A stretch of DNA of 64,000 bases from Candidatus Omnitrophota bacterium (GTDB lineage: Bacteria > Omnitrophota > Omnitrophia > JAHJGZ01): NCBI GenBank assembly GCA_018823795.1, contig JAHJGZ010000132.1, positions 21,755 to 85,754 on the forward strand, given 5' to 3'. Numbering within the stretch: position 1 is the stretch's first letter; every line of letters begins with the position of its first letter. Shown here in pieces: positions 2,895-63,989 of the stretch. The position numbers were made by a program, and so were the translations under genes. Below the pieces are notes generated by a model that saw only the letters and a list, made by a program, of their open reading frames with translations, did no database searches and was not told where the DNA came from.

Positions 2895-3416
2895 TTAAAA
2901 ATGAATCAAGGAATATATATCATACCCCTGTAGCTTGTCTTTGCCATGCAAAAAGTCAAGTTCGATCAAAAAGGAAAGCCCCGTAACGACCCCGCCCAAC
3001 TTTTCGATCAACTGCACCACCGCTTCAGACGTGCCACCAGTCGCTAAAAGATCATCCACAATCAAAATTTTGGCACCTTTCCCAATAGCATCTTCATGTA
3101 TTTCAATAGTATCTTCACCATATTCCAAAGAATAGGTTACTGCCTGTGTTTTTGCAGGAAGTTTCCCTTTTTTTCTAATTGGCGAAAAACCTTTTCCAAG
3201 CTTATACGCAACAGCAGATCCAAAAATAAAACCACGCGATTCAATTCCAACGATTAAATCAATTTCCAGATTTTTCACTTGATCAAGCATGGCATCAACC
3301 GCACATTGAAAAGCATCTTTATCCTTTAATAAGGTTGTTATATCCTTAAAAATAATTCCCTTCTTAGGAAAGTCCGGAACATCGCGGATTGTTTTCTTTA
3401 AGCATTCTACATTCAT
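2895..3416 (-). CDS. apt: adenine phosphoribosyltransferase
   Basis: [16 protein letters not shown] and the PRPP loop [14 protein letters not shown] moved the start to the ATG at 3416, which follows a GAGGAGAG SD; the ORF-track start at 3461 overlaps the sigma gene. Confidence 0.9.
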
Positions 3417-3435
3417 GTTCTCTCTCCTCTCGTAT

Positions 3436-4593
3436 TTACAAATAGTGTTCCAACTTGTCATCTTGCTCTTTTAACTGATCACGAATTTTCTTGAGAGCGG
3501 CAAATTCGATCTGTCGAACTCGTTCACGGGTAATACCAAACTGTTGCGCAGTCTCTTCGAGCGTATGAGCGTCGTGATTATGAAGACCGAACCGTAAAAT
3601 TAAAATTTTCTTTTCGCGTTCACTTACATAATTAAGCAAGGTTTCAATGCGCTCGCTCTTTGAAACCTGGTGTGCCTCTTCATACGGTCGACTTAACGAT
3701 TCATCTTCAATGAGATCCATCAATTGTGCATCACCTTCAATACTCACCGATGCATGCAATGAACTCGGACACGATGTTGCTACGTCCTCAATATCCTTAA
3801 CCTTTTCAGGGGGAAGCTTCAAGAGCTTAGCAATTTCCCTTTGGGTTGGAACACGCCCTAATTTTTGAGATAAATGTTTTTTCGCTTTGCGCCATCGGTT
3901 CATTGTCTCAAACATATGTACCGGAATACGGATGAGCTTTCCTTGGTTTGAAAGCGCCCGCATAATTGACTGTTTTATCCACCACGATGCATACGTACTA
4001 AATCGATATCCTCTTTTATAATTAAACTTATCAACGGCTCGCATTAACCCAATATTACCTTCTTCTACAATATCTGAAAAAGGAAGTGTTAAATTCATGT
4101 AGCGCTTACCAATATTAATAACCAACCGTAAGTTGCTTCTAATCATCTTACGTCGTGCTTGTTTCCAGCGACTTTTTTTCAATTGAATTGTTCGAGATAG
4201 ACTAAGTTCCTCTGACGCAGTTAACAGTGGTATGTGTTCGATTTGATTGAGGTAAATACGCATTGGAGTCAACCCCTGAGCACGTTGTGACGTGGCGGCC
4301 AACTCCTGTGCCTTTAATTTTTTTGATGCAACTTGATCTTTTGTTGCCTTCTGAACAACCTCTTTTTCTTTTTTCTTTTCTGTTTTCTTACGAGCTCGCT
4401 GAGCCCTCTTTTTAGAGAGTTTACGGCGTTGTGGACGTTTTTTAATTTTCCTTTTACGTTTTTTTCTTCTTTTTTTTACAGTTTTTCTCTGAGACTTCGT
4501 GCGTGGTTTTCTCACCCTCTTCCGAACCGACCGCAGGACAGCCCTTTTCCTCTTTTTTCTTTTAGCCTTCTTGCGCTTGTTGCTCTTTTTCAT
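3436..4593 (-). CDS. RNA polymerase sigma-70 family factor (RpoD-like) with a Lys/Arg-rich N-terminal extension
   Basis: Region 2 reads [34 protein letters not shown] and region 4.2 reads [11 protein letters not shown]. The first ~105 aa are mostly K/R. The ATG at 4593 overlaps the ppdK stop (TAATG). Confidence 0.9.
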
Positions 4594-7322
4594 TATTTTT
4601 TCTTCTGTTCGAGCACCGCTTGTGCCGCAGCTAAACGAGCGATAGGAACACGATACGGTGAGCAACTAACATAATTAAGCCCTATTTTAACAAAGAATTT
4701 TACCGATGCGGGATCGCCGCCATGTTCACCACAGACACCAATTTTGAGATTTTTACGCGTCGAACGCCCTCGATCGACGCCAATTTTGACCAATTGCCCT
4801 ACCCCTTCTATATCGATTGAAGCAAAAGGGTCATCCATGACAATTTTTTTATCAAGATAATCAGGCAAAAAACTTCCCACATCATCACGGCTGTACCCAA
4901 AGGTCATTTGTGTCAGGTCATTGGTACCAAATGAAAAGAATTCAGCTCGTTCTGCAACCGTATCAGCGACAAGGGTTGCACGAGGAATTTCAATCATGGT
5001 ACCGACGAGATAATGGATGTTCGCCTTTTTCACCTTAATAACTGCATCTGCTGTTTGACGCGTTAATTCTTCAAGAATATCAAACTCAGCTTTCGTTCCA
5101 ATAAGCGGAATCATAATTTCAGGAAGCACCGTTACTCCCTCCTCTGCGACATTACACGCGGCTTCAATAATAGCTTTCACTTGCATCGTACATATTTCCG
5201 GATAGGTAATCGAGAGACGACAGCCTCGGTGTCCTAACATCGGATTCATTTCGTGAAGACTCTCTACCTTCTTTTTTACCACCTCAGCTGTTGTTTTAAG
5301 CCGTTTTGCCATTTCTTCCTGTCCTTTTTCATCATGTGGAAGAAATTCATGAAGTGGTGGATCAAGTAAACGAATAGTCACGGGTAAACCATCCATTGCT
5401 TCAAAAATGCCTTCAAAATCCTGTCGTTGCAACGGTAAAAGTTTCTTCAATGCCTTCTCACGTCCCGCAAGGTCATTGGCAAGAATCATTTCCCGAACTG
5501 CCCAAATACGGTCACCTTCAAAAAACATATGTTCGGTACGACATAACCCGATCCCTTCTGCACCGAGCGCACGTGCAACCTGTGAATCTCGAGGTGAATC
5601 GGCATTGGTACGAACTTTGATTTTGCGCACTTTATCAGCCCACTTCATTACTTCAAGGAATATTATACATATCGGATGTTGCCGTGCTTTCTTATTGCCT
5701 TCAGCAATACCCGAAACAACTGGTGAAGAAGACGTACCTACATGGCCAAGGATAATTTCCCCTGTTGAACCATCAACTGAAATTTCATCACCCTCTTTAA
5801 CAATTTTGCTCCCCACGGTCATATTTTTTTTCGTGTAATCAATGTTAAGCGCGCCACACCCAACGACACAACATTTACCCCAGCCTCGCGCAACAACAGC
5901 TGCATGAGAAGTCATACCTCCGGTTGACGTTAAAATAGCCTGTGCTGCCCACATACCACTGACATCTTCAGGAGATGTTTCTTTTCTTACCAACATAACC
6001 TTTTTACCTTCCTGTGCCCAACGCACGGCATCATCCGCCGTAAATACAACGAGTCCATTCGCGGCACCAGGTCCTGCAGGGAGCCCCTTTGCAATTATCC
6101 GTTTTGCAGCAATAGCCGCCACTTTAGCCTTTGGATCAAGAATCGGAAAGAGAAGCTGGTTAAGATGATCCCCCTCAATCCTCTTGAGCCCCTCCTCTTC
6201 CGTAATGAGCTTTTCCTTTACCATATCCACGGCAATCTTCACTGCAGCAAGCCCCGTACGCTTGCCGGTCCGTGTTTGCAACATGAAAAGTTTCCCTTCC
6301 TGAATGGTAAATTCAATATCCTGCATATCCCGATAATGCTTTTCCAATTTATGACGAATAGTATCTAACTCTTTATAAATTTTGGGCATTCTCTTCTGCA
6401 AGGAGGCAATCTGTTCAGGAGTGCGAATACCAGCAACCACGTCCTCACCTTGTGCATTGATTAAATATTCACCAAAAAATTTATTTGTACCATCTGCTGG
6501 GTTACGGGTAAAACCAACCCCGGTCCCTGAATTCGACCCCATATTACCAAATACCATTGCTTGAACATTCACCGCAGTCCCTTTTAAGCCATGAAGTTTA
6601 TTAATATTGCGATAGGCAACAGCACGGGGAATATTCCATGAACCAATGACAGCATCTATGGCATAGCCAAGTTGTTCGCGGGCATCGGTTGGAAAATTTT
6701 TACCAACAGATTTTTTATATACCTTTTTATACGCGGCGACCACTTCCTTAAGTTCCTGAGTCTTTAAATCAGTATCTAGTTTGCGCTTGTATTTTTTCTT
6801 AATGCGTGTTAATTCGTGTTCAAAATACTCGTGATCAACCCCCATACACACATCACCAAACATATTAATAAAACGACGATATGAATCCCATGCCATACGT
6901 TCGTTTTTCGTCTTTTTCGTTAATCCGATAATCACATCGTCATTAATACCAAGGTTCAATACGGTGTCCATCATACCCGGCATCGAGACCGCAGCACCGC
7001 TACGAACTGACACGAGAAGCGGATTATCCTTATCCCCAAATTTCATTCCCATAGTTTTTTCAATTTTTTGGATATTACGTTCAATTTCTTTATCTAAACC
7101 GTCAGGCTTTTTCTTTCCGTGTGAATTGTAATATTCACATACATCGGTCGAAATGGTAAAACCGGGCGGCACCGGAACACCGATACTTGACATTTCCGCA
7201 AGATTAGCCCCTTTGCCACCTAATAATTCCTTCATTTTGGCGCTGCCTTCTGCTTTGCCGCCGCCAAAAAAATAAACGTATTTCTTTTTCTTCGCTGCTG
7301 ATTTCTTTGTGCTCTTACTCAT
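4593..7322 (-). CDS. ppdK: pyruvate, phosphate dikinase
   Basis: 909 aa with the phosphohistidine loop GGMTSHAAVVARGWG, GLCRTEHMF and CGEHGGDP. Confidence 0.95.
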   Translation of the reverse strand: MSKSTKKSAAKKKKYVYFFGGGKAEGSAKMKELLGGKGANLAEMSSIGVPVPPGFTISTDVCEYYNSHGKKKPDGLDKEIERNIQKIEKTMGMKFGDKDNPLLVSVRSGAAVSMPGMMDTVLNLGINDDVIIGLTKKTKNERMAWDSYRRFINMFGDVCMGVDHEYFEHELTRIKKKYKRKLDTDLKTQELKEVVAAYKKVYKKSVGKNFPTDAREQLGYAIDAVIGSWNIPRAVAYRNINKLHGLKGTAVNVQAMVFGNMGSNSGTGVGFTRNPADGTNKFFGEYLINAQGEDVVAGIRTPEQIASLQKRMPKIYKELDTIRHKLEKHYRDMQDIEFTIQEGKLFMLQTRTGKRTGLAAVKIAVDMVKEKLITEEEGLKRIEGDHLNQLLFPILDPKAKVAAIAAKRIIAKGLPAGPGAANGLVVFTADDAVRWAQEGKKVMLVRKETSPEDVSGMWAAQAILTSTGGMTSHAAVVARGWGKCCVVGCGALNIDYTKKNMTVGSKIVKEGDEISVDGSTGEIILGHVGTSSSPVVSGIAEGNKKARQHPICIIFLEVMKWADKVRKIKVRTNADSPRDSQVARALGAEGIGLCRTEHMFFEGDRIWAVREMILANDLAGREKALKKLLPLQRQDFEGIFEAMDGLPVTIRLLDPPLHEFLPHDEKGQEEMAKRLKTTAEVVKKKVESLHEMNPMLGHRGCRLSITYPEICTMQVKAIIEAACNVAEEGVTVLPEIMIPLIGTKAEFDILEELTRQTADAVIKVKKANIHYLVGTMIEIPRATLVADTVAERAEFFSFGTNDLTQMTFGYSRDDVGSFLPDYLDKKIVMDDPFASIDIEGVGQLVKIGVDRGRSTRKNLKIGVCGEHGGDPASVKFFVKIGLNYVSCSPYRVPIARLAAAQAVLEQKKK

Positions 7323-51689: not shown

Positions 51690-51800
51690 CTGACTCCTCC
51701 TTTAAATGAGGCCATGATTTATGGAGTCAACATGACGACATAAATCATCTGGCCGAATTAATCCCTGCCGCTTTGCTTCGCTCGGCGAAGAAGGCGGGGA
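51690..51800 (-). repeat. intergenic module copy 4 (P1, ATTAATTC linker, P2, SD)
   Basis: P2 spans 51714-51748 and is closed by ggcc/ggcc. The linker is gaattaat (51755-62) and P1 spans 51763-51799. Confidence 0.8.
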
Positions 51801-52021: not shown

Positions 52022-52150
52022 GTTAGCCTCCGTTTTATGAGGCCATGACTTACGGAATCTGAAAGACGACGTAAGTCATCTGGCCGAATTAATCCCTGCC
52101 GCTTTGCTTCGCCGGACTGCCGTTAGGCAGACGAGCGAAACAGGCAGGGG
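52022..52150 (-). repeat. intergenic module copy 5 (branched P1, ATTAATTC linker, P2, SD)
   Basis: P2 spans 52045-52079 (atgacttacg...cgtaagtcat) and the linker spans 52086-93. P1 spans 52094-52150 and contains a nested ctgcc/ggcag hairpin. Confidence 0.8.
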
Positions 52151-56815: not shown

Positions 56816-57421
56816 TCGCACACCTCCTTTGTTATACGTTATTACTTTTTCATCACTCTTTATTAAGACGTTAAAGAAGCGTACAGCGCTTCAAAAATAT
56901 CAGGCGCTTTTTTAAATATGACTCTGGTAACATTGGTATGCCCTATGCAGTATGAGGAGATAGATTAAAACGTGTGTGGTAAAGAATCCGTTCTCCTAAA
57001 ACTCCTTCAGTACAACTATTACAATACTTTTTTTCAATTAGCGCGAACGGCAATCTGGTTGGTGCCCTACATCAGAGGTGCTGTAGGATACCTAATACCC
57101 ACGACCGCATTGTAAAGGCATACGTTCCGCTCTTTCCCTCCGTGCCACTCTTTCTTAGAAAATTTTTGTTACAACGTGTATCTTTTGTATATCATCTGCA
57201 TTAATACTTTACATATTATCTACAATAGTTGAGTTAATCTTTATTATTACAACTTGTGACTATTATTGCAATAATAAATGTTTGCAGTATGATGATTATT
57301 ATTATAGCACCATCAAGTAATTGTTCAACTTAAATAATAATAAGAGGCAAGGGGAAGGCATTTATTCAGGGAAAACGGGACATGCCTATTTCAATTATTA
57401 ATTTTAAATGCCCTTTTTGTC

Positions 57422-57886
57422 TTAACATTTCGTCAAGCATAACAGCTGTAGGCGGGTTTGTTCAAGTCGTTGCGCAAAAATTTTTGTGAGTCGCATCATG
57501 AGTTCAAATCCCAGTTCATGATTCTCCATGCATTTATTCCGCAAGCAGGTACCATCCAACGCAATGGCACGCGTGTCTTTGACCGCACGGCAATTAAACC
57601 GCGCACGGTGTGGTGGAATAAGCCACGACCAGCCGAGAATCTCACCTTCCTTAATGGTCTGGATACTAATTGCGTCATACTGACCGGTCAGAACTTCAAT
57701 CGCCACTAATCCTTCACGGATAAGATAAAATTTTTCCGCAGGTTCACCTTCTTTAAAAATAACTTCATCCGGCCTAAAGCGCACATTCGAAGCACACCCC
57801 ACGATAAAATCAAAGTATTCCTGTTTTAAATCTTTAAAAAAAGGATGCTTTTTTAAGATAGGCTCAAGTGTTTTATTTCCTTCCAT
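57422..57886 (-). CDS. stand-alone cyclic-nucleotide-binding domain protein (no HTH)
   Basis: 154 aa with a CAP_ED-type beta roll (FKEGEPAEKFYLIREG...GEILGWSW). Confidence 0.8.
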   Translation of the reverse strand: MEGNKTLEPILKKHPFFKDLKQEYFDFIVGCASNVRFRPDEVIFKEGEPAEKFYLIREGLVAIEVLTGQYDAISIQTIKEGEILGWSWLIPPHRARFNCRAVKDTRAIALDGTCLRNKCMENHELGFELMMRLTKIFAQRLEQTRLQLLCLTKC

Positions 57887-58003
57887 GGTAACCTCATTTT
57901 AATGAGCGCATAATTTATGGAGTGCCTGCCTACCGACAGGCAGGCGTAGCACGACATAAATTATTTGCGCGAATTAATCCCTTAAGGCGAAGCCTTATAG
58001 GGA
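57887..58003 (-). repeat. intergenic module copy 6 (P2 carries a nested GC palindrome)
   Basis: P2 spans 57910-57964 and carries gcctgcctaccgacaggcaggc (57924-45) in its loop. The linker is gaattaat (57971-78) and P1 spans 57979-58003. Confidence 0.8.
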
Positions 58004-58289
58004 TACATGACGCGAGCATTACTAATTACACTGTCATCAATGAACACTGCCCAACGTACTTCAGAATCTCCCGGAGCAATAAAAAAAAGAATGTTATCAA
58101 TATTCGACATATCGATTGAATCGATAACAGAATATAACGTAGTTTTTCGATGTAAACTTTACGATTTTTTTCTTTCGAGGGTGTAAAGATTGTAGCAAAA
58201 ATGGAAGATTTTTTAAAGAAGCATAATGGGGCTATACGACGGTAACTGTGAGATATAAGCACTGCACTAATTGTTGATGGCGAGGATGG

Positions 58290-58514
58290 TTAGATAATCA
58301 TTTCCAGGTTTCTTTTAATGGCATCTGCCTTATCAGGCGCAACACGATTATAATGTACGATAAGACTCTCTATGATCGCAGGCAATTTAGCCTGATCAAT
58401 GAGCTGGGAATTTACTCCTCGTGCCGCGCACACTTGATAAACAGTAGTGCACACATCTGTTGGAACAAGGGGCGCTATTGCCCGTATTAATTGCTGGTAA
58501 TATCCGCTCTCTAT
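58290..58514 (-). pseudogene. third copy of the 75-aa partner protein, lacking an in-frame ATG
   Basis: My translation, (I)ESGYYQQLIRAIAPLVPTDVCTTVYQVCAARGVNSQLIDQAKLPAIIESLIVHYNRVAPDKADAIKRNLEMII*, is paralogous to 59701..59928 and 59972..60202. The nearby ATG is 1 nt out of frame. Confidence 0.6.
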
Positions 58515-58558
58515 CCATATGAAACTCCGGCCATATGTTTTGATGAAAAACGGTACCC

Positions 58559-58837
58559 TTACAGCGCCATTTTAAAACTGTTTCCTTCTTCATCTTTAAC
58601 TTTAAGAAAAAAATCACAGGTCATGCAACTGCGTTTATCTTGTGCAAACGTACCTTTTTTTTTCTCTTTACAGAACGTTCCTGCAATAAGCCAGCAGATT
58701 CTCCCCGCATTCGTGCCGCCATTTATTCCATCGCTTGTTTTGTTTGAGGCTGCAGGACAGACACCGAGTTTTTTCACCTTCTGCCCGCCGATACCCCTTC
58801 CACATCTTTTAAATTCCCAACAATTTTCTTTCATCAT
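58559..58837 (-). CDS. Cys-rich 'two-CW' protein, copy 2
   Basis: MMKENCWEFKRCGRG...GRICWLIAGTFC...CMTCDFF, paralogous to 60234..60506. The start is probably the ATG at 58837 or 58834. Confidence 0.75.
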   Translation of the reverse strand: MMKENCWEFKRCGRGIGGQKVKKLGVCPAASNKTSDGINGGTNAGRICWLIAGTFCKEKKKGTFAQDKRSCMTCDFFLKVKDEEGNSFKMAL

Positions 58838-58976
58838 ACTATTCATCCCCTTTCATTTTCATAATGCCCCCAGCCTTCTGATATGTTTTTTCTCTCGTGG
58901 CTTCCAAATGCTATCCTGTACGTATCATTACAATACAACATAACAAATGTATTTGTAGGTCGTGGGCAAAAAAAAT

Positions 58977-59297
58977 TTACCAAGCTACTTCTTGGTTTTG
59001 ATTACGATACACCGCACATTTATTTCTTTCGCGCGGTTTGCACTTTTTGATCTCCCAACACGGTTTCTTTAACATGAGCTCTCTGACCCCTGCCAGATTA
59101 ATCCTTTTCTGCTGAACCATTTCTTTAATAAACTTCAACTTCCCCAAGTCACAGCGGGAGTAATATCTATTCTTCCCAAGGCGAGCCGGTTTAATTAAGC
59201 CTTTATGCTCCCAAATTCTCAGCGTAGCTAAACACACCTCTAAAAGATGAGCAACGATACCAATCGTATAAACCGGTTTATTATCATGATGTTCCAT
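58977..59297 (-). CDS. MerR-family HTH regulator with C-terminal CWEIKKC..C motif
   Basis: The MerR HTH reads YTIGIVAHLLEVCLATLRIWEHKGLIKP and the C-terminus reads KKPCWEIKKCKPRERNKC. Confidence 0.8.
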   Translation of the reverse strand: MEHHDNKPVYTIGIVAHLLEVCLATLRIWEHKGLIKPARLGKNRYYSRCDLGKLKFIKEMVQQKRINLAGVRELMLKKPCWEIKKCKPRERNKCAVYRNQNQEVAW

Positions 59298-59508
59298 TTT
59301 TTCTCCTCACCGTTATTCAACAGATAAAGACTACCACCTCAAAACGTTGTTGTCAAGTAACCTATAAAGAGCATTATTAGATGCCGTTTTTTTGATATTT
59401 CTGTATGAGTAGATTGTTCAACCGATGGCAGGAAAAAACATGCTCTGAATGATATAAACAGGTATGTACCATTCGAAAAAAATTCTCATCACTGCCGGCA
59501 GTGTAGGC

Positions 59509-59700
59509 GGCCATATAACTTTGATCGTTCATTTACCCCTGCCTGCTTCTCAAACCGAAGCAATGCGGCAGGGATTAATTCGGCCATATGACTTTGATCG
59601 TTCATTTACCCCTGCCTGCTTCTCAAACCGAAGCAATGCGGCAGGGATTAATTCGGCCATATGACTTACGTTCGCTCTACTCCGTAAGCCATGGCCTCAT
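59509..59700 (+). repeat. intergenic module copy 7: two 73-bp tandem units plus a terminal P2, in plus-sense orientation
   Basis: The units span 59509-59581 and 59582-59654 and differ by a single base by eye (59517 a vs 59590 g). The terminal P2 spans 59661-59692 and is followed by ggcctcattta. Confidence 0.8.
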
Positions 59701-59928
59701 TTATTCTATCATATCCAACGTCTCTTTTATGGCATCGACCTTATCAGCCACAAAAATTTTATAATGTACGAGCAGTCCCTGTTTAATAACGGATAAGTTT
59801 TCTTGCGAAATATTTTCGACATGTATCTTATTCCTGCGGCAGACTCGAGAAATCGTGGTACATACATCTGTTGCACAAATAGGGGATATCGCTTTCACCA
59901 GCCGAACATAATATGAATTTTCTTCCAT
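59701..59928 (-). CDS. 75-aa partner protein, copy 2
   Basis: MEENSYYVRLVKAISPICATDVCTTISRVC...ENISQENLSVIKQGLLVHYK, a paralog of 59972..60202. Confidence 0.7.
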   Translation of the reverse strand: MEENSYYVRLVKAISPICATDVCTTISRVCRRNKIHVENISQENLSVIKQGLLVHYKIFVADKVDAIKETLDMIE

Positions 59929-59971
59929 TCTCTGATCCTTTGCTCAAGTATGAATCTTTCGGCATGAACTG

Positions 59972-60202
59972 CTATACGACAGTATTGAGTTTTGTTTTAA
60001 TCATCTCCATTTTATTAGCTAAAAAGTTTTTATAGTGTTCTACAATACCGCTTTTAATCATCGGTAAATCTTCTTTTGATATATTTTCGACATTCAACCC
60101 GTTTTCTTTACACACAGCATACACGGTAGTACCGACACCGACTGAAATGATTGGGGAAAGCGCTTTCACTAATTGGATATAATAGGTATTGGTAATAGCC
60201 AT
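59972..60202 (-). CDS. 75-aa partner protein, copy 1
   Basis: MAITNTYYIQLVKALSPIISVGVGTTVYAVC...ENISKEDLPMIKSGIVEHYK, starting 31 nt after the two-CW gene. Confidence 0.7.
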   Translation of the reverse strand: MAITNTYYIQLVKALSPIISVGVGTTVYAVCKENGLNVENISKEDLPMIKSGIVEHYKNFLANKMEMIKTKLNTVV

Positions 60203-60233
60203 GGTTTCACAACGATATATGCGTACGGGTCTT

Positions 60234-60506
60234 TTACGTCATTTTAAAATCGGTTCCTTCTTCTTTTTTTACTTTGACGAAAAAATCACAGGTCATACAG
60301 GTCTGTTTCTTTTGTGCAAAAGTACCCTGCCGTTGCCCGCCACCAAACGTACCGGCAACAAGCCAGCACATTCTTCCTGCATTCTCGCCGCCATTTATTC
60401 CATTACAGGCAACGAACTTGGTAACCGGACACGCACCTAATTCATCTATCTTGTTCCCGCCTTTTCCTCGTCCGCATTTTTTAAACTCCCAGCAATTCTC
60501 TTTCAT
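60234..60506 (-). CDS. Cys-rich 'two-CW' protein, copy 1
   Basis: MKENCWEFKKCGRGKGG...GRMCWLVAGTF...CMTCDFF. A GAGGAGAG SD precedes the ATG. Confidence 0.8.
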   Translation of the reverse strand: MKENCWEFKKCGRGKGGNKIDELGACPVTKFVACNGINGGENAGRMCWLVAGTFGGGQRQGTFAQKKQTCMTCDFFVKVKKEEGTDFKMT

Positions 60507-60570
60507 CGTCAGTCTCTCCTCGTGTTAGATTATTCGATATACATTACGGCATAAAGGAACTATTTCTTTA

Positions 60571-60716
60571 GCCCCGTTAGAGATTATGTACTATTTTATA
60601 TTACACGTCTTTTTAAAAAAAAAGATACCTTGTACCCATATTCGTATTTCATCGAGATACGGAAACGCCTACTATTCACACGCTGCGTTTCCTATCTCTA
60701 ATGGGGTTAGCCCCCC
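60571..60716 (-). promoter_or_regulatory. CCCCGTTAGAG-type inverted repeat in the leader of the two-CW operon
   Basis: The arms are ccccgttagag (60572-82) and ctctaatgggg (60696-706), with the mini-palindrome ggggttagcccc (60703-14). The architecture matches the pseudopilin leaders. Confidence 0.5.
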
Positions 60717-60745
60717 TATGGAAAAAATTATACATTTCTGATCGT

Positions 60746-61588
60746 TCACGAGCGTCTCCCCTGCACTGTACGTACTGCGAGTTCTTCTTTCTTCCGTGCG
60801 GCATATTGATAAAGCAACGGTGTAACAGGCAGCCCTTCCTGCGGATGGGTAAGAATATGCCACCAGAGCTTCTTTGCTTCCGCCCTGACTGCCTCCCGTT
60901 CCTTAGTGAGGGCCAGTGGTTTTGCTTCTGAATAAATAAGGGCATTTGGATTAAATCGGATACGAAAACCGGCGATAAGCAAGCGATGGCCATATTCAAT
61001 ATCTTCATAGCCAAATGTTTTTCCGAGTGCAAATCGTTCATCAAAAAGACCGGCACGCTCAATGCACTCACGAGATAATGCTACGTTACCACCCATGAGT
61101 TCAGTCAGATTGTTTTCTTCGCTTAATCTTTGCAAGCGTCTCATAGCGTCATCATCAACCGTTATGGGAAGCTTTGTATTTAATTGTGCCCGATTATACG
61201 TAATACACCCGGTAAGAACTTTTTCCCCTTTTTGCAATAGGGTAAGGTGTGCATCCATCCATTGCGTATGCGGAATGGTATCATCATCTAAAAAGAGTAA
61301 ATATTCACCCCGTGCTTTCTTTATCCCCTTATTACGTGCAACAGAGGTACCGTATGTATCCGTAAGACCGGTATTATCATAGGAAATGTCAAACCGATAT
61401 GCCCGTTCCTCAATGATGCGTTGTACAAATTCCTGGGTTGTATCGGTCGACCCGTCATCAACGATAATGACTTCAAAGGAAACATCCGGTGCTACCACTT
61501 GGCAATCTAAGTGGTTCAAAACCTCTTCGAGGATTTTCCTGCGGTTAAATGTACAAATAATGACTGAGGCAGTATAGGAAAAATTCAT
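60746..61588 (-). CDS. family 2 glycosyltransferase
   Basis: SVIICTFNRRKILEEVL...IIVDDGSTD...FLDDD is the GT-A fold with its DxD motif. Confidence 0.85.
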   Translation of the reverse strand: MNFSYTASVIICTFNRRKILEEVLNHLDCQVVAPDVSFEVIIVDDGSTDTTQEFVQRIIEERAYRFDISYDNTGLTDTYGTSVARNKGIKKARGEYLLFLDDDTIPHTQWMDAHLTLLQKGEKVLTGCITYNRAQLNTKLPITVDDDAMRRLQRLSEENNLTELMGGNVALSRECIERAGLFDERFALGKTFGYEDIEYGHRLLIAGFRIRFNPNALIYSEAKPLALTKEREAVRAEAKKLWWHILTHPQEGLPVTPLLYQYAARKKEELAVRTVQGRRS

Positions 61589-62828: not shown

Positions 62829-63989
62829 TTATGCAAAGACCTTAATAATGTCTTGCAGCATTGCTTGTTTGAGTTTGTCGGTCATGGCGTCTTGAATATC
62901 GTCAGTATTAAAAAACCTCTGCTGTTCTAACTCTTGAACCTTCTGTGCATCTAAAAAGAACAGACCGAGTTTGAGTTTTGCTTCGTCTGACAACTTAATA
63001 TTCTCGACAGTACTATTTGGTGCGTATAAGTTCTCAATCTTCGTGAAGACATAGCCCAGCGGTAGTGATGAGGAAACATCACCATATATAACACGAACTT
63101 TATTATGCAATGTGATATCGGTGATGTTCCTTAATGTCTGTCTAATAGATGCTGAAAAGATATCTATTATTTTTCGCTGGTTTGGAATAAAAACATTGAT
63201 CTTCTTAAAGTTCAAAAGAGTGTCTTCAAAAAATTGATAGTTCCCCTCATTAACATGATACAACTTATCCGACGATATTACCGTTTGTACGATATCCTCC
63301 TCCTCACGCCCAAGCATCCTTCTTAGTTCCTTACAATAGAACGCCCGTGTCTCAGGAGGGACGTCAGCGGGGAAAAAAATAAAGATCTTTTTATAACAAT
63401 CAAACATATTTCGTTCGACAAACTCACGCACTTTTTCCCTATCCATTTTTACCATCATATCAACATACTCTGCATGCATAAGAGCAGCAGTATTTGATGA
63501 TTCCCTTTCAGCGCGAGCAGCATTTTCATCACTCTTTTTATGAAATACTGCGCCTTTGGAGAGAATATCGATCAGCATCTGCTGAATAGATGCAGCATTT
63601 TCCTTATCGATCGTCTGTGCTTCAAGTGCTTTTTTAATGAGTACCTGAGCAAGTGCTCTGGTATCGTTCCACATCTCAGGATCACCGGAATCTTTGATGA
63701 GGCCGGCAAGCAACACTTCGCGTAAACGTATCGGATACGATTCGCTCATCTGCTTCGCAATCTTCTGATTAATAAATGCCCGAATTGCGTACCTGAACCA
63801 TCCTTTTTCCGCTACATCGTCCGGTGTTGCATCTAAACCAAACCGCTTTTTAAAATAGCGTGCGATTCGATCATCCCACATGTAATTTTGTGGGAATTCT
63901 GTCCGTTGCAATGCGATACTTTGTTGAAGACCCTCTTTGCTATGGCCATGAATCGCGCACAGCAGTTCATGGAAGAGATATTCATGCAT
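62829..63989 (-). CDS. hypothetical protein
   Basis: 386-aa ORF with no recognised domain. Confidence 0.5.
   Translation of the reverse strand: MHEYLFHELLCAIHGHSKEGLQQSIALQRTEFPQNYMWDDRIARYFKKRFGLDATPDDVAEKGWFRYAIRAFINQKIAKQMSESYPIRLREVLLAGLIKDSGDPEMWNDTRALAQVLIKKALEAQTIDKENAASIQQMLIDILSKGAVFHKKSDENAARAERESSNTAALMHAEYVDMMVKMDREKVREFVERNMFDCYKKIFIFFPADVPPETRAFYCKELRRMLGREEEDIVQTVISSDKLYHVNEGNYQFFEDTLLNFKKINVFIPNQRKIIDIFSASIRQTLRNITDITLHNKVRVIYGDVSSSLPLGYVFTKIENLYAPNSTVENIKLSDEAKLKLGLFFLDAQKVQELEQQRFFNTDDIQDAMTDKLKQAMLQDIIKVFA

Follow-up and report, generated by a model that had tools for sequence, protein, structure and literature searches.

A seven-cysteine two-CW domain as a probable signalling input module, and a MerR-type regulator with a related cysteine tail, at an Omnitrophota locus

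In this study, we analysed a group of small cysteine-rich genes in 64,000 nucleotides (nt) of DNA from a Candidatus Omnitrophota bacterium (GenBank assembly GCA_018823795.1, contig JAHJGZ010000132.1, positions 21,755 to 85,754; hereafter the window). A sequence-only reading of the window had described two cassettes of so-called two-CW proteins and 75-amino-acid (aa) partner proteins around a MerR-type regulator that carries the same CW motif, and had proposed that they form a metal-, iron-sulfur (Fe-S)- or redox-sensing regulatory module. The genes considered here are all on the minus strand, at the places given by that reading. In 5' to 3' order, two-CW copy 1 (90 aa, 60234..60506), which has a GAGGAG Shine-Dalgarno sequence upstream, is followed after 31 nt by partner pA (76 aa, 59972..60202) and, after a further 43 nt, by the pA paralogue pB (75 aa, 59701..59928). 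Next come approximately 400 nt of non-coding DNA that contain a 73-nt tandem repeat, the regulator (106 aa, 58977..59297), here called MerR-CW, and two-CW copy 2 (92 aa, 58559..58837). A third partner, pC (58290..58514/58519), frameshifted near its start, begins some 40-44 nt past copy 2; the gaps within the cassettes thus measure 31, 43 and 44 nt. We find that the two-CW domain is very probably a cytoplasmic signalling input domain, that MerR-CW belongs to a family whose genes stand, in about half of its lineages, beside genes for Fe-S assembly, sulfur mobilisation or Rnf, and that the trio of two-CW, partner and MerR-CW genes is lineage-specific.

The two-CW proteins are already catalogued in NCBIfam, as NF045718 ('two-CW domain-containing protein'; two_CW_domain), a model that carries a name without a function. 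Both window proteins match it end to end (model positions 1-80) and far above its cutoff of 35, copy 1 with 97 bits and copy 2 with 104 bits. A Pfam scan of both proteins returned no family, and a literature search for the domain or its motif found no paper; the earlier statement that the domain has no described function therefore holds. So does the description of the two proteins as paralogs that align end to end: they share 64% identity at the protein level and 74-77% at the DNA level, with a synonymous divergence (dS) of ~1.0 and a ratio of nonsynonymous to synonymous divergence (dN/dS) of 0.24. Judged by these rates, the pair is an old duplication under purifying selection, and the copies are real genes. 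We rule out that the duplication arose as an assembly artefact, given copies that are just 74-77% identical in their DNA and a dS of ~1, and chance open reading frames (ORFs) are ruled out by the same dS together with the dN/dS. Gene callers place the start of copy 2 at 58837, and an alternative ATG lies at 58846.

A scan of species-representative genomes (one genome per species) yielded at least 558 confirmed two-CW loci, and we analysed the best 80, those most similar to the stand-alone query, so that the share of fused forms among them is not a census. The majority of these 80 come from Nitrospirota (Thermodesulfovibrionia), and the others from Desulfobacterota, Planctomycetota, Acidobacteriota, Omnitrophota, Elusimicrobia, Chloroflexota, methanogens and one Asgard archaeon. 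Over 82 distinct domains, seven cysteines, both tryptophans, the glutamate of CWE and the proline of the first Cys-Pro are 98-100% conserved, in the pattern N-C-W-E-x-K-x-C-G-R...G-x-C-P...G-R-x-C-W...G-x-x-C...C-x-x-C-x-F. The cysteines fall into two CW-x(4-6)-C-x14-C units, the second of which has an extra CxxC partner. Conservation of the cysteine positions among homologues, which the sequence-only reading had named as a check, is borne out. The six invariant cysteines that it had counted are indeed shared between the window copies, but the family has seven near-invariant ones; only six were visible because copy 1 has a glycine at the fifth conserved position, the sole exception to a cysteine kept in 81 of the 82 domains. 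Copy 2 retains all seven cysteines but is alone in carrying G56E, Q59K and K65D, three changes at positions with a conservation of at least 96%. The copies have degenerated in complementary ways, the three changes of copy 2 lying in the segment of the cysteine lost from copy 1, which may reflect subfunctionalisation or a heterodimer.

The two-CW domain also occurs as the N-terminal module of larger proteins, whose N-termini score 74-110 bits on NF045718. It is fused to hybrid histidine kinases of HisKA, HATPase, REC and Hpt domains (loci L001 and L022), to a plain histidine kinase (L014), to PAS (L008, L022), to CheW (L012), to a PP2C phosphatase (L032), to a cNMP_binding domain with a Ser/Thr kinase (Pkinase; L032, L048) and to GAF and HATPase in a further kinase (L160). 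In three of these loci (L001, L012, L014) it is the sole candidate sensor domain. Stand-alone copies, for their part, usually adjoin signalling genes: in a tally of 97 immediate neighbours from 54 loci, the most frequent Pfam families were Response_reg and PAS (10 each), HD/HD-GYP (8), HAMP (7) and GAF (6), followed by MCPsignal, HisKA/HATPase and GerE (4 each) and Pkinase (3). The genes 3' of stand-alone two-CW genes encode PAS/kinase, REC, HDOD or FHA proteins or further two-CW copies, and no conserved small ORF was found at that position in the analysed loci. Because of the fusions to signalling enzymes and the signalling genes next door, we regard a role as cytoplasmic signalling input domain as very probable. 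To the catalogued name this adds a signalling role, which we did not find in the literature searched.

Tandem pairs of two-CW genes are frequent (L053, L056, L061, L067, L069), and the Asgard locus (L069) encodes a single 185-aa protein with two fused domains; duplication of the two-CW domain is therefore common outside the window as well. Genes for SelB (three loci) and SelA (two loci) directly adjoin stand-alone two-CW genes in L062, L077 and related Thermodesulfovibrionia loci.

AlphaFold2 models the domain with confidence (predicted local distance difference test, pLDDT, 85; predicted template modelling score, pTM, 0.73), as a compact small fold whose first half contains few regular secondary-structure elements. 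Searches of the PDB by fold (best E 5.5) and by sequence gave no match, and the fold is probably new. Seven near-invariant cysteines in two such units make it likely that the domain binds a metal centre; that the cofactor is an Fe-S cluster specifically has somewhat less than an even chance of being correct. The two-CW domain resembles described Fe-S sensor domains, such as those of NreB (a PAS domain with a [4Fe-4S] cluster), FNR and WhiB-like proteins, as a cytoplasmic cysteine-rich input that stands before kinase outputs and probably reads O2, nitric oxide (NO) or redox state. It differs from them in its seven-cysteine, two-unit pattern and has no sequence or fold likeness to solved structures.

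The regulator between the cassettes matches PF13411 (MerR_1) with 60.3 bits against a cutoff of 21.6 (E 2e-16). The earlier description of it as a MerR-type protein with a CW motif stands, except that the motif is CWEIKKC-x7-C, three cysteines spaced C-x5-C-x7-C, and not x6. We collected 102 homologues of ~103 aa; the named ones are from Omnitrophota or the Planctomycetes-Verrucomicrobia-Chlamydiae (PVC) group, mostly Omnitrophota. C80, W81, C86 and C94 are invariant or nearly so among them, and the tail reads CWE[IV]KxC-x7-C-[PK]-V-Y. When this tail was aligned with the first CW unit of the two-CW domain by hhalign (69% probability, E 4e-5, one 7-residue gap), the CWE-K-C...CP residues coincided in both. 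This agrees with the earlier claim that the regulator and the small proteins share a motif, and suggests that the tail is probably homologous to the first CW unit, a half-domain relative within the MerR family that was likewise not found in the literature searched.

None of the described regulators compared here accounts for the family. The best curated match of its helix-turn-helix (HTH) region is HspR, at 57-63 bits against an equivalog cutoff of 105 for NF047375 (60 bits for the orthologue P0071); TnrA is also below its equivalog cutoff, of 140, and GlnR/TnrA are the best PDB matches for the HTH region. HspR and TnrA/GlnR share with MerR-CW the architecture of a short protein with a C-terminal signal-receiving tail, but the cysteine tail is confined to the MerR-CW family, and its neighbours are Fe-S, sulfur and rnf genes rather than chaperone or nitrogen-assimilation genes. 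Identity as HspR was rejected on the score of 57 bits and on neighbours that are NifU, NifS, Rnf and sulfur-mobilisation genes rather than dnaK/clpB chaperone genes. SoxR resembles MerR-CW in combining a MerR-type HTH with a cysteine cluster at the C-terminus, the probable reporter of redox or Fe-S state; it was rejected because TIGR01950 gives 24 bits against a cutoff of 116.9, and because MerR-CW has three cysteines where SoxR has a four-cysteine [2Fe-2S] motif. At ~103 aa, MerR-CW also lacks the long dimerisation helix of SoxR. The metal sensors MerR, ZntR, CueR and CadR were rejected at 18-27 bits against cutoffs of 143-168, and MerR-CW is too short for the metal-sensing MerR architecture of a long dimerisation helix and a metal loop. 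Rrf2 regulators ligate their cluster through three cysteines. Membership of that family (IscR/NsrR) was rejected since a Pfam scan gives only MerR and HTH_17 families, which leaves IscR, NsrR and RirA as functional analogues only: a small regulator heads nifU-nifS and its three cysteines are likely cluster ligands, but the DNA-binding fold is MerR in MerR-CW and Rrf2 in those proteins.

The genes that follow MerR-CW in other genomes point to a physiological role. Two orthologues (P0071, P0091) lie directly upstream of rnfC-D-G-E-A and an NqrF-like gene, and two others (P0119, P0122) directly upstream of cysK, HcyBio, a NIL-ferredoxin gene, a cysteine desulfurase gene, NifU and NadA. With 80 metagenome loci added and dereplication at 90% identity, we obtained 53 MerR-CW groups, in 25 of which NifU/NifS, Rnf or sulfur-mobilisation genes (NIL-Fer4, ThiF, CysK, HcyBio, Thi4) lie within four genes; many of the contigs are short, and these neighbour counts are lower bounds. 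Of the 46 groups in which a downstream gene is present, 10 have NifU and 7 have RnfC as the next gene, and Rex and CsoR also recur. Because about half of the lineages place the regulator beside nifU-nifS, sulfur-mobilisation or rnf genes, we infer that members of the MerR-CW family regulate in response to Fe-S or redox status, in the manner of IscR or SoxR but belonging to neither family; the association with Fe-S and rnf genes is also new with respect to the literature searched. In the window, tblastn searches for NifU, NifS, Rnf, CysK, ThiF and Rex gave zero matches. An 82-aa cysteine-rich protein of unknown family is encoded directly 3' of MerR-CW at L113:5634-5882 and L116:5488-5736.

A near-identical promoter, cTTGACAATAnnATTTATATATGATATAAAA, with a 17-nt spacer, was found in 33 of 58 dereplicated orthologue upstream regions (L093-L172, L081), even though the proteins of the loci that share it are 55-65% identical. 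This conserved element suggests autoregulation, and its 17-nt spacer would fit an autoregulated repressor site better than the 19-20-nt activator promoter typical of MerR.

Of the three partner proteins that the sequence-only reading had listed, pA and pB are intact paralogues (48% identical), and pC, which is 35-43% identical to them, has lost its in-frame start to a 1-nt frameshift. Its frame contains no ATG, GTG or TTG before the GTG at 58454; an ATG preceded by a Shine-Dalgarno sequence lies at 58519, one base out of frame, with the extra base in ATAGAGAGCGG, an AGAGAG run. The pC sequence is identical in three assemblies, its ORF is skipped by gene callers, and its dN/dS against pB is 0.21. 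We consider pC a probable recent pseudogene, or else a gene that needs recoding. Scans of the partners with Pfam, NCBIfam and PADLOC gave no family, and a word-indexed homologue search returned the query itself only. A HMMER profile search of 1.84 billion representatives, in which pB was the top match, recovered three other homologues, P0133 (E 1e-9), P0134 (E 7e-9) and P0135 (E 5e-4). The AlphaFold2 model (pLDDT 92) has four helices, and one cysteine is invariant in the family. The partner is a lineage-specific, very rare protein with a predicted four-helix fold.

A fold search of the PDB with the partner model gave helical bundles only, none of them at a significant E. The best full-length structural neighbour that Foldseek found for the partner is Af1502 (5a1q; TM-score 0.65-0.71, root-mean-square deviation ~2.4 A), the type protein of the STAC family, at a non-significant E of 2.2. 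STAC proteins are small (60-90 aa) four-helix bundles encoded right after an effector-less receptor (PMC4834066). The STAC bundle is made up of two alpha-hairpins. With its four predicted helices the partner would resemble STAC/Af1502 as a stand-alone bundle, and a proline motif joins helices 1 and 2 in each (LGPxxA in STAC, [LI][SAE]P[ILV]xx in the partner), but four-helix bundles are common, a profile search of PDB sequences with the partner did not recover 5a1q, and Pfam gave no match. STAC is moreover tied to SLC5 transporters and membrane receptors, whereas the gene upstream of the partner encodes a soluble two-CW protein. The parallel with an output-less sensor followed by a small helical protein is appealing, and we use STAC solely to picture a possible mode of action of the partner.

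The 195-aa protein that precedes partner homologues elsewhere (L090:2971-3558, L091:3412-3999, L092:2-193) contains cysteines, ends in FYQLACRS...G.ACL and has no Pfam, NCBIfam or PDB match. Its cluster holds unknown small proteins together with GerE and ArgR regulators.

Since genes of all three types stand side by side on one strand of the window, and since the CW motif is common to the two-CW domain and the tail of the regulator, they might be taken for a dedicated, conserved three-part metal- or redox-sensing system. One further locus speaks for this, L160, in which a 510-aa two-CW-GAF-HATPase kinase (3180-4712) is encoded directly upstream of MerR-CW (5001-5279). Among the 84 MerR-CW loci scanned (regulator gene identified in 74), however, no other has a two-CW protein nearby, and conversely no MerR-CW gene was found in the 80 two-CW loci. 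The partner profile gave zero matches to the ORFs of those 80 loci, and the two partner homologues whose upstream DNA could be read follow the unrelated 195-aa protein. With co-occurrence lacking in two-CW, partner and MerR-CW loci alike, a conserved three-part system is very improbable, and the trio is lineage-specific. The module that the sequence-only reading had proposed accordingly fails on the conserved gene neighbourhood that it had named as a check, while its sensory part survives: a sensory role fits the two-CW fusions and neighbours, and a metal, Fe-S or redox signal fits MerR-CW by its nifU/nifS, sulfur and rnf genes. In L160 the first CW unit has a loop of intermediate length, C-x5-C-x10-CP.

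The two-CW domain could also be understood without any sensing. It might be a structural zinc module for interaction or dimerisation, with the MerR-CW tail a zinc knuckle that stabilises a dimer; small compact domains with invariant cysteines and little regular secondary structure in part of the chain are seen in many zinc fingers, and an N-terminal place in kinases would suit dimerisation or docking equally well. Yet several kinases and the CheW fusion have no other non-catalytic domain, the family is found mainly in anaerobic lineages, and the place of the half-motif regulator before Fe-S assembly and rnf operons would be left unexplained, and we consider this unlikely. Alternatively, stand-alone two-CW proteins might be Fe-S carriers, scaffolds or ferredoxin-like electron carriers that MerR-CW controls as part of an Fe-S homeostasis regulon. 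Ferredoxin motifs contain Cys-Pro, as the cysteine-rich two-CW proteins do, and the two-CW gene of the window holds the slot 3' of MerR-CW that NifU or RnfC takes in orthologous loci. For a carrier, however, fusion to kinases, phosphatases, CheW and PAS and a setting amid signalling genes would be unexpected, and none of the nifU/nifS or rnf clusters examined contains a two-CW gene, which makes this quite improbable. Small duplicated genes beside a small HTH regulator also recall precursors of modified peptides, or parts of toxin-antitoxin or phage-defence systems. PADLOC gave only a generic HTH match (mad1, 28 bits) and a weak PycC match (E 0.004), the neighbourhood contains no genes for maturases, radical-SAM proteins, transporters or toxins, and a confidently predicted globular fold, conserved over its full length and joined to signalling enzymes, speaks against such a role, to which we give hardly any credence.

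We favour instead a model in which the two-CW domain is a sensor. The seven cysteines of its two CW units would hold a thiolate-bound cofactor, for which one or two Fe-S clusters are favoured and zinc is the alternative, and the oxidation or occupancy of this cofactor would be the signal, shifting with O2, NO, redox state or the supply of Fe-S. Such a shift would switch the output domain of fused proteins and, in stand-alone proteins, alter binding to a partner. Candidates for such binding at this locus are the four-helix proteins, which may serve a sensor without an effector domain of its own as adaptors or outputs, and perhaps the neighbouring cyclic nucleotide (cNMP)-binding protein, since two-CW-cNMP-kinase fusions exist. 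The MerR/HspR/TnrA-like regulator would sense Fe-S or redox status through its shortened single CW unit (CWExKxC-x7-CP), binding its promoter in one cofactor state and releasing it in the other. A divergent member of that family is placed here before the second two-CW cassette and probably controls it. As a whole, with sensor domain, partner adaptors and an Fe-S- or redox-responsive MerR-CW, we hold this explanation to be slightly better than an even bet.

Several findings weigh against the model. The seven cysteines could equally bind zinc for purely structural reasons. The pairing of sensor and adaptor has no comparative support: the partner was not seen at any of the 80 other two-CW loci, its homologues P0133 and P0134 are those preceded by the 195-aa protein, and one of the three partner copies in the window is frameshifted. 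For the regulator, the link to Fe-S genes is absent in 28 of the 53 groups, a count inflated by the many short contigs. A position-weight matrix of cTTGACAATAnnATTTATATATGATATAAAA scored at best 5.7 over the window against at least 26 for true instances, so that the window regulator is without the promoter element of its orthologues. No shared operator was found before the two cassettes: the palindrome ACAAATGTATTTGT, which precedes the second cassette, occurs only once in the window. A terminator-like hairpin with a T-run (58979..58996, minus strand), found by a consensus scan only, overlaps the stop codon of the regulator gene and so lies between it and the second cassette. Their adjacency makes it plausible that MerR-CW controls this cassette.

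Few domains for cytoplasmic sensing of redox state, O2, NO or Fe-S status are known in strict anaerobes (FNR, NreB, WhiB-like, Rrf2 and SoxR), and most of the uncultured lineages considered here, such as Omnitrophota, Thermodesulfovibrionia and Asgard archaea, are without characterised sensors. The two-CW domain is a compact 80-residue, seven-cysteine module; since it recurs before at least six kinds of signalling output and has no solved relative, it is a good candidate for a new class of sensor, and one that is tractable to expression, spectroscopic and structural studies. For nifU-nifS and rnf in Omnitrophota, MerR-CW in turn offers a candidate regulator that can be tested. The most far-reaching outcome would be a new-fold Fe-S or thiolate-metal gas or redox sensor that anaerobes of many bacterial and archaeal phyla attach to kinases, chemotaxis proteins, pairs of Ser/Thr kinase and phosphatase, and cNMP modules, a half-domain MerR master regulator of Fe-S assembly and Rnf in Omnitrophota as a non-Rrf2 counterpart of IscR, and a novel four-helix adaptor at this locus; we put this forward tentatively, as rather doubtful in its entirety. 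Cysteine-based sensors and MerR-type redox regulators are already known kinds of system, and if the cofactor were structural zinc the result would be the more modest one of a new interaction domain.

Downstream of the second cassette, the cNMP-binding protein (154 aa, 57422..57886, minus strand) matches PF00027 with 56 bits against a cutoff of 27.5 (E 4e-15), as the sequence-only reading had recognised. Pfam and NCBIfam scans found no HTH domain in it; it is therefore a stand-alone binding domain and not a CRP-type regulator. Its likeness to the cNMP domains fused to two-CW is generic (24% identity), and 403 nt of non-coding DNA separate it from pC. We treat it as context and a possible functional partner. 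Beyond it, in minus-strand order, are genes for a periplasmic binding protein and a methyl-accepting chemotaxis protein, and at the other end, first in the 5' to 3' order, a GT2 glycosyltransferase gene (60746..61588, minus strand) precedes copy 1.

The first cassette is separated from the regulator gene by a hairpin-rich repeat (59508..59700) resembling repetitive extragenic palindromes (REP) or miniature inverted-repeat transposable elements (MITE). A hairpin with a 14-bp stem leads into 2.2 copies of a 73-nt unit (repeat D3, 59508-59667), which are 99% identical to each other. Related copies of this dispersed repeat occupy three other intergenic places (51696-51781, 52027-52112 on the plus strand, and 57910-57982). 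Contigs of other assemblies of the same genome end exactly at 59508-59700, which implies that the element breaks short-read assemblies. An Rfam scan of 57000-61000 gave nothing credible, and a scan of the region for promoters and terminators found sites no more numerous than in shuffled sequence. At the edge of the window, the ORF at 62829-63989 continues past the window end. Together with the best matches of the regulator it points to an Omnitrophota genome; it forms the C-terminal part of a giant gene (over 3,594 codons) that has iPGM_N/Metalloenzyme matches in the public record.

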